From a virus (taxonomy: Duplodnaviria; Heunggongvirae; Uroviricota; Caudoviricetes): 64,000 bases of DNA. The DNA is taken from IMG/VR virus record IMGVR_UViG_2734482790_000004, one strand, 5' to 3'. Positions 49,013 to 49,850 of this stretch are shown here, piece by piece (the stretch's first letter is position 1; every line of letters starts with the position of its first letter). The position numbers and the translations under genes are program-made. The notes beneath the pieces were generated by a model. That model ran no database searches and was not told where the DNA came from. It saw nothing but the letters and a program-made list of their open reading frames with translations.

Positions 49013-49822
49013 ATGCAAGAAGAGAAACAACACTACCTCTACGTTCTGGTGCCAGAGAACGGAGATACTTTTAAAATCGGCATTTCATGTGGTCCATTGG
49101 CACGGTTTAAAGGGCTACAAGTGAGTCCCGATTTTGCGCTTTCACGGGTCTATCGTGGTACGCGTTTGGCAATGGTTAATCTTGAGCGGGCTTTACACGC
49201 AACCTTTTTCCCCTGGAATGCGCCGTGGGAGAAAAGCGCCGGTGGCGGGCATACTGAATGGTTTACACGAGAGTGTCTTGATAAGGTTTTGGCTCATATC
49301 GAATATCTAAATGATATGTGGGGAGGGATTCTCGAGCGCATCAAGTCGAATGATTTACTTCAGCGTCCAGTAGATGCTGCTTGCTCTTTCGAAAAAGAGC
49401 TGGATGTTACTTCTATCGTGACTTTCAAAGATGACGCAGGAATGAGGGACGTGGCTTATGTCTCCATATCTGGCTATGAACCGGACGCGATCCGCGCTCA
49501 ATGTGAATTGCTGAAAGCAATGTTTATGCTTCGGACTAAATATCCCTGGGAGACAGGGCGGGTGTGCTTCCCTATGGAAGAGTTAACCGCCACCATTGAT
49601 TCCCAGCTTTACCACGATAATCCAGAGAAGTTTTTTAGCCTTTTAGCCGGTAATGGGCTTAACTGTGTGTCCGGGCTGGGGCGAAGTAGAATCCAACATG
49701 CCTCGCTCTTCGGTCCCTTCTTTTACGATCGACACGGGTACTTTGAGGCTGAACTTCCGGCGCTTACGCGTGCTATAGATACTATCGATTTCGAACGATT
49801 ATTCGCTGCTCTTAGCAAATAA
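49013..49822 (+). CDS. T5orf172/GIY-YIG-like domain protein, 269 aa
   Basis: N-terminal YLYVLVP...FKIGIS pattern; own terminator. Confidence 0.4.
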   Translation: MQEEKQHYLYVLVPENGDTFKIGISCGPLARFKGLQVSPDFALSRVYRGTRLAMVNLERALHATFFPWNAPWEKSAGGGHTEWFTRECLDKVLAHIEYLNDMWGGILERIKSNDLLQRPVDAACSFEKELDVTSIVTFKDDAGMRDVAYVSISGYEPDAIRAQCELLKAMFMLRTKYPWETGRVCFPMEELTATIDSQLYHDNPEKFFSLLAGNGLNCVSGLGRSRIQHASLFGPFFYDRHGYFEAELPALTRAIDTIDFERLFAALSK

Positions 49823-49829
49823 CACTGAT

Positions 49830-49850
49830 GCCCCTGAACGGGGCTTTTTT
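49830..49850 (+). terminator. Rho-independent terminator (GCCCC-TGAAC-GGGGC plus T6)
   Basis: GC stem and T-run. Confidence 0.65.

Follow-up and report, generated by a model that had tools for sequence, protein, structure and literature searches.

A putative T5orf172 nuclease gene closes the exchangeable p0111-type replicon cassette of P1-like phage-plasmids: a possible role in competition between replicons

A gene encoding a putative nuclease is the final element of a cassette that replaces the P1 replicon as a whole. It lies in a window of 64,000 nucleotides, the entire stretch of DNA analysed here, from a tailed-phage record (Caudoviricetes; IMGVR_UViG_2734482790_000004). Replication, partition and phage propagation do not require the gene, which evolves fast. 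The cassette is the known p0111-type replicon, as in RCS47, SJ46 and JL22, which sets these phage-plasmids apart from the IncY type, and it moves as one unit through homologous recombination within conserved flanks. We infer, tentatively and as a possibility somewhat short of even, that the encoded nuclease is selfish or competitive and that its targets are rival P1-like replicons.

The 269-aa ORF is a genuine gene and not a chance reading frame, because it is at least 94% conserved in ∼400 plasmid records and has diverged homologues in the same position. An earlier note on this DNA had placed the ORF between the iterons and Ppar, and this is correct (Table 1). Its ATG at 49013 is the earliest start codon downstream of the preceding stop, and RefSeq annotates the same span on the identical plasmid pSA186_4. 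The earlier note had also given the gene its own Shine-Dalgarno sequence and a strong terminator. The terminator holds up (−11.9 kcal/mol, z = −2.7, beating 200 of 200 shuffles on folding), and a comparable hairpin and T-run lie 3′ of the type-B nuclease gene of a diverged locus, L006. The Shine-Dalgarno sequence turned out to be only a weak AGTGGT, though it is kept in the homologous cassette of another diverged locus, L004, which is ∼71% identical. No sigma-70-like promoter was found directly 5′ of the ORF, and searches for a sigma-70-like promoter and a terminator in the interval between repA and the ORF found neither. Thus, co-transcription with repA is possible. The last of the six control iterons ends 29 nt 5′ of the ATG. 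Rfam returned no family match for the region, and base composition showed no anomaly.

Table 1. Features of the replicon cassette and its nuclease gene (window coordinates)
Feature	Coordinates	Strand	Remarks
Replicon-specificity cassette, p0111/alpha type	47639..49888	+	replaces 1,491 bp of canonical P1 (incC iterons, repA, incA, spacer)
Five origin-side iterons	47654..47754	+	consensus TGTTGACTATACGCGA, 21-22 bp spacing; repeat family D1
repA	47836..48720	+	294 aa (RefSeq); Rep3-family initiator, alpha/p0111 type; alternative start TTG at 47800
Six control (incA-like) iterons	48721..48983	.	48721 and 48745 in origin orientation; 48838, 48900, 48932 and 48962 inverted
Shine-Dalgarno-like AGTGGT, weak	49001..49006	+	6 nt 5′ of ATG; from sequence
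Nuclease ORF	49013..49822	+	269 aa; putative T5orf172 (GIY-YIG superfamily) domain and orphan C-terminal domain
T5orf172 nuclease domain (putative)	49034..49267	+	aa 8-85; fold extends to ∼aa 105
C-terminal domain	49364..49819	+	aa 118-269; sequence orphan; acidic, pI 5.0; predicted extended winged-helix fold
Intrinsic terminator	49830..49853	+	GCCCC-TGAAC-GGGGC then TTTTTTGTG; closes cassette
Right junction, parA promoter/operator region	49889..49990	+	P1 homology resumes, 99.2%

The cassette is laid out in the order five iterons, repA, six iterons, nuclease and terminator, and its 2,250 bp (2.25 kb) stand against 1.49 kb in P1. Homology to P1 in BLAST comparisons is limited to positions 45139-47638 and 49889-53000, and both junctions were examined base by base. 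The left junction falls inside oriR: the part with the DnaA boxes and GATC sites is common to P1, and homology stops exactly at the first iteron. The right junction lies ∼100 nt 5′ of the parA ATG, immediately before the −35 element of Ppar. Flanking proteins are 92-100% identical to their P1 counterparts, and the RepA of the window has 40% identity to P1 RepA and 84% to that of L004. This RepA matches Pfam Rep3_C (E = 4.4e-6) and Rep3_N (E = 2.4e-4); RefSeq labels it a RepB-family initiator. In canonical P1 (NC_005856) the end of incA and Ppar are ∼190 bp apart with no CDS between them, in agreement with the earlier note. A simple insertion between incA and par, which it had proposed, was nonetheless rejected, as BLAST and RepA identity indicate that repA and the iterons have been replaced as well. 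The adjoining iterons are likewise not the incA iterons of P1, as had been supposed, and belong to the p0111-type replicon. The idea that upfA occupies the interval between incA and parA in P1 was also rejected; upfA lies upstream of oriR.

The control iterons, with a unit length of 16-22 nt, comprise repeat families D1, D3 and D4 and inverted pairs I1-I25, and they are kept in L004. Two further sequence elements of this region were recorded. Inside repA, positions 48438-48453 (TGTTGACTATAAGCGA) match the iteron consensus at 15 of 16 positions, in the orientation of the origin iterons. After the first two control iterons, a 30-nt non-iteron block at 48757-48786 (beginning GCGACATTCGTTGACGCTGGTGGATTTT) is near-perfectly conserved with L004 and is a candidate protein-binding site or promoter element. 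Left of oriR, the upfA position is variable among P1-like elements, in agreement with the ‘variable region 6 (repA and upfA)’ of the literature. For example, at locus 3525-4356 of L056 (NZ_CP103660.1), compared with window positions 47109-47501, a ‘Gp49 family protein’ gene and a different 133-aa ORF replace the single upfA-like gene.

As a member of the p0111-type replicons, the window shows no structural difference from RCS47, SJ46 and JL22, and the identity of cassette and gene with this group is 98.5-100%. In JL22, repA′ (p0111) and a gene of unknown function, gp57, replace the IncY repA (PMC9603915); gp57 is the gene studied here. The cassette is 100% identical to that of pSA186_4 (E. coli SA186, 96.7 kb), where window positions 47639-49888 correspond to 87766-90015 of NZ_CP022733.1. 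The window probably derives from this plasmid or from a nearly identical P1-like phage-plasmid. MOB-suite, via PLSDB, assigns the replicon of pSA186_4 to ‘IncHI1B’, apparently in error for a p0111-type Rep3 replicon. The cassette was found in ∼404 PLSDB records and the nuclease gene in ∼401, and 412 of 5,426 complete E. coli genomes (7.6%) carry the gene, nearly always on plasmids. Seven of 421 occurrences in these genomes are chromosomal, and maybe represent integrated or mis-assembled P1-like elements. A 231-kb E. coli plasmid (NZ_AP027538.1, 31273-31596) holds the isolated last ∼260 bp of the gene and the terminator with no other part of the cassette, a relic of past recombination. Annotation of the gene is uneven. 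RefSeq names the product ‘GIY-YIG nuclease family protein’, and elsewhere it appears as a hypothetical protein, under the same GIY-YIG label or as a T5orf172 domain-containing protein. In Escherichia phage phi456 (OR339795.1, 40441-40782) the homologous gene is labelled ‘terminase small subunit’, almost certainly a mis-annotation.

An exhaustive HMMER search of 1.84 billion representatives returned 76 relatives, 75 of which match only the N-terminal domain over ∼100 residues. The single full-length relative (P0004, 44% identity) and the two best N-domain matches (P0010 and P0011) are all on P1-like contigs and in the same slot, within the order RepA, iterons, T5orf172, ParA and ParB. A homologous nuclease thus occupies this slot in three further diverged P1-like lineages, at identities of 44% and ∼26%, and L004, L005 and L006 share the order RepA, T5orf172, ParA and ParB. 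The slot is held by a nuclease gene across a backbone divergence of ∼70% nucleotide identity. Neither PLSDB nor the phage collection contains the type-B gene (P0010); cross-matches there are confined to the N-domain. A scan of a genome collection added just one more E. coli-group locus and one unrelated MAG, and a third profile search returned mostly short contigs. Two ‘truncated’ clusters (P0002 and P0003) were rejected as evidence of pseudogenes; they are contig-edge artefacts.

An identity matrix separates RepA proteins into alpha (window and L004, 84%), beta (P1 and L005, 83%) and gamma (L006) types, and the nucleases fall into type A (window and L004) and type B (L005 and L006), with 26% identity overall between A and B. 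The beta-type, P1-like RepA of L005 comes with a nuclease gene, so canonical P1, which lacks the gene, may have lost it and need not reflect the ancestral state. No remnant of the gene was found in the incA-Ppar spacer of P1 (213 bp), nor was there an obvious target.

The comparison of L004 with L005 reveals a second, independent swap of the cassette. Their flanking proteins are 98-100% identical, their RepA proteins 39% and their nucleases 27%, and the breakpoints coincide with those between the window and P1 within ∼15-20 nt. Both near-isogenic pairs have the same form, with flanks at 92-100%, RepA at 39-40% and a nuclease that is either absent or 27% identical. Flanks were also compared across 46 p0111-type loci and five IncY elements with a P1-type par. 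Distances over the 3.1-kb right flank are equal within and between cassette types (0.011, 0.012 and 0.012), and one IncY plasmid shares all 3.1 kb, without a difference, with a p0111-type element. Neighbour-joining trees require at least four changes of cassette type on the right flank and at least three on the left, with cassette types intermixed on flank haplotypes; at least three to four switches are already required with just four to five IncY samples. The nuclease gene is absent from P1 and IncY plasmids and present in p0111-type elements whose flanks are at least 99% identical. In a survey of P1-like elements, 63 of 119 were p0111 and 52 of 119 IncY, and replication and partition genes were often exchanged (Pfeifer and Rocha, PMC10879196).

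The boundary between replicon and partition genes recombines in other ways too. Many IncY plasmids have a different par module right after incA (its ParA has 401 aa and its ParB 321 aa, the sizes found in L006), with no intervening gene; thus, the rep/par junction is a recombination boundary even without the nuclease gene. We take this alternative module to be P7-like. In L054 (NZ_CP063505.1) and L055 (NZ_CP047473.1), both IncY-type, alternative overlapping ParA and ParB genes directly follow incA (locus 5543-5943), so the partition module has also been swapped here, independently of the replicon cassette.

The N-terminal part of the protein is probably a T5orf172 endonuclease domain with an intact catalytic core. 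Pfam T5orf172 (PF10544) matches residues 8-85 with E = 4.7e-6 and 27.5 bits, over a curated gathering cut-off of 20, in line with the T5orf172/GIY-YIG-like reading of the N-terminus made earlier; a match to MUG113 falls under its own cut-off. The PHROG family to which the protein belongs has no assigned function; another PHROG, with the label ‘endonuclease’, matches at 5.5e-9. In an alignment of 25 sequences, Y10, K21, G23, R31, S44, E58, L61, H62 and E82-W83-F84 are invariant, as are the core motifs Y-x-Y and K-I-G. The predicted fold is of the GIY-YIG/URI alpha-beta type, with SLX1 as the top structural match. SLX1 itself has a RING/PHD second domain and requires SLX4. The structures matched (PDB 6seh, 7cq2 and 7wme) share 11-16% sequence identity with the protein, and nothing suggests a common biological role.

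The C-terminal domain is confined, over its ∼150 residues, to P1-like elements. Its predicted fold is nearest to the WH1 domain of iteron-plasmid initiators, a likeness that comes without detectable sequence homology. BLASTP against five RepA proteins gave E > 1, hhalign against the initiator gave a probability of 0.2%, and Pfam returned no match at E ≤ 10, Rep3 included, for the four C-domains. Full-length and C-domain profiles matched only noise among PDB sequences, and no CapR-type zinc finger was found in the domain. The A-type and B-type C-domains are themselves only weakly linked (E = 0.003). The domain is acidic in all four lineages (pI 5.0-5.4), as against pI 9.3-9.5 for the RepA proteins, and its putative recognition helix has few basic residues. 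Protein-protein pairing is therefore as plausible for this domain as direct DNA binding.

Selection on the gene differs from that on its neighbours. Across 45 full-length nuclease alleles, with repA, parA and parB taken from the same loci, pN/pS was 0.32 for the nuclease gene, 0.02 for repA, 0.00 for parA and 0.06 for parB. At least five independent events have disrupted the gene. Three independent nonsense alleles were found (W68*; S112*, in five loci; and Q228*, in L030). In L050 (IMGVR_UViG_2645727563_000002, 6295-8057) an IS200/IS605-type insertion, encoding a 389-aa TnpB-like ORF and a 141-aa Y1 transposase-like ORF, replaces nt 295-523 of the gene, and in NZ_CP100960.1 (54239-55824) the gene is split by IS1. 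No disruption of repA, parA or parB was seen. These results agree with the earlier description of an accessory gene, in that it is dispensable. Still, 39 of 47 sampled copies (∼83%) are intact and the residues of the catalytic core show zero variation among alleles. The gene is dispensable yet not neutral, because disruptions recur while the catalytic core never varies.

The nearest precedents are Odn, the origin-directed nuclease of Vibrio phage ICP1, and the free-standing homing endonucleases. Odn (Gp88/ORF88) has a T5orf172 nuclease domain, as does the protein described here (hhalign probability 89%, E = 2.3e-6), and ICP1 ORF88 is also matched by Foldseek. Residues E180, R148, H184 and E202 of Odn align opposite E58, R31, H62 and E82, and the E180A substitution abolishes Odn cleavage (PMC8263062). 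Each protein has two domains, of which the non-nuclease one is initiator-like (here in its predicted fold), and each is linked to RepA-iteron pairs that are modular and can be swapped. The targeting domain of Odn is N-terminal, with 42% identity to its target's RepA_N domain, and iterons are needed for cleavage (PMC8263062), whereas the domain described here is C-terminal, acidic and Rep3 WH1-like in predicted fold alone, without sequence similarity. Sequence comparison with RepA, ParA and ParB showed no similarity, and a chimera of the Odn kind was rejected. Furthermore, the odn gene is part of a lytic phage's anti-satellite locus, whereas this gene sits within a replicon cassette.

Free-standing GIY-YIG homing endonucleases of phage include the T4 Seg proteins and I-TevI. 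Our gene shares its superfamily with the T5orf172/GIY-YIG homing endonuclease genes that form the ‘HEG islands’ of ICP1 (PMC10448857). Like homing endonuclease genes, it stands at the edge of an exchanged module of co-adapted essential genes, is sporadic among close relatives, has a non-catalytic domain that diverges fast and occurs as degenerate alleles. ICP1-type homing endonucleases carry basic zinc-finger repeats (CapR, DUF723 or DUF4397) and sit with lytic-phage genes, whereas this protein has no such repeats and its host module is a plasmid replicon. The junction also recombines in elements that have no nuclease gene.

The anatomy of ORF, cassette and domains is secure, and from it we infer how a competitive nuclease could work. 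Rival P1-like elements cannot stably coexist, because their par genes are identical and they are partition-incompatible. When a rival P1-like element shares the cell, the nuclease would cut it in its replicon region. Targeting could come from DNA recognition by the nuclease itself, or from pairing of its WH1-like domain with iteron-bound RepA. The rival would then be lost, or the break would be repaired from the nuclease-encoding cassette and the replicon type of the rival converted. The reading builds on the gene's place in the cassette, on the frequent exchange of cassettes and on a selfish or accessory pattern of evolution, in which weak constraint and repeated disruption go with C-domains only 32% identical between cassettes whose RepA proteins share 84%. 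It parallels homing-endonuclease genes of the T5orf172 type at module boundaries (PMC10448857) and Odn. Several observations weaken it. Cassette breakpoints could be explained by module boundaries alone, no drive is visible in cassette-type frequencies (p0111 and IncY types occur at similar frequencies), and the C-domain is acidic. Nonetheless, we favour a competitive nuclease as the working interpretation.

The rather unlikely alternative of a replicon accessory factor would direct the protein inwards. Here the WH1-like domain would pair with the element's own RepA or iterons, and the protein would modulate initiation, handcuffing or copy number, or process replication intermediates, with no action on rivals. 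WH1 is the dimerisation domain of Rep3-family proteins, the C-domain has its nearest predicted fold there, and an acidic domain beside a basic RepA (pI 9.3) suits protein-protein pairing. The gene also always accompanies repA and the iterons, 29 nt past the last control iteron with no terminator between; its slot is conserved in four lineages; and the top structural match, SLX1, is a structure-specific nuclease. This explanation must contend with weak constraint (pN/pS 0.32 versus 0.02 for repA), with at least five independent knock-outs that persist in otherwise intact elements, L030 with its Q228* among them, and with IncY-type P1 replicons that work without such a gene. Moreover, between the cassettes of the window and L004 the C-domains are 32% identical and the RepA proteins 84%; a conserved partner interface predicts otherwise.

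A sharper and more doubtful version of the competitive nuclease casts the protein as an initiator mimic that arms or drives a ‘homing replicon cassette’. Through its WH1-like domain it would dock on the rival's iteron-bound RepA or on the iterons, where its T5orf172 domain would cut. The rival would be lost or repaired from the resident cassette, with its incompatibility type switched.

A stand-alone nuclease that defends against phages or plasmids and rides as cargo in a variable hotspot, the reading towards which the earlier note leaned, is improbable. Defence genes are usually spread over many element types, whereas the full-length family is restricted to P1-like elements and to this slot (one full-length sequence among 76 matches). 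The gene is also alone, without a partner, and linked to the replicon instead of to known variable cargo regions. PADLOC-DB 2.0 yielded no defence model at E ≤ 1 and NCBIfam no model, so the proposed association with defence found no support. A GIY-YIG-type nuclease that is dispensable and fast-evolving, with a variable C-domain that evolves like a sensor or specificity domain, would fit such a role, and phage-plasmids often bear defence genes (PMC10879196). Finally, a passenger in decay, which began as a homing endonuclease or mobile gene and is now functionless and kept only by linkage to repA, would account for the 8 of about 47 sampled copies that are disrupted and for a pN/pS far above that of the neighbours, and is very improbable given a pN/pS still well under 1, 39 of 47 copies intact, a catalytic core invariant across alleles and across lineages diverged to 26% identity, and a slot held over a backbone divergence of ∼70% nucleotide identity.

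The dichotomy between p0111 and IncY replicons was already known, as were the gene itself, as JL22 gp57 (PMC9603915), and its RefSeq name. Within the searchable literature, several features of the gene have not previously been described: its conserved slot across diverged lineages, its place within a cassette whose independent swaps share their breakpoints, the contrast in selection between it and its neighbours, the retention of an Odn-type catalytic core and the initiator-WH1-like predicted fold of its C-domain. Should the gene prove a mere linked passenger, the result would still be a tidy annotation: the p0111 cassette includes a dispensable gene of the GIY-YIG family.

In E. coli and Salmonella, ESBL and mcr genes often travel on P1-like phage-plasmids, and exchange of the two replicon types of these elements is regarded as an escape from incompatibility. 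If the nuclease eliminates or converts rivals, it would explain at the molecular level how these elements compete and turn over their replicons, and it might serve as a plasmid-curing tool. The logic of homing endonucleases and Odn would then extend from lytic phages to plasmid replicons. If the cassette itself homes, phage-plasmids would switch replicon type through the action of a nuclease and not passively, a plasmid-world counterpart of ICP1 Odn and the homing-endonuclease islands.
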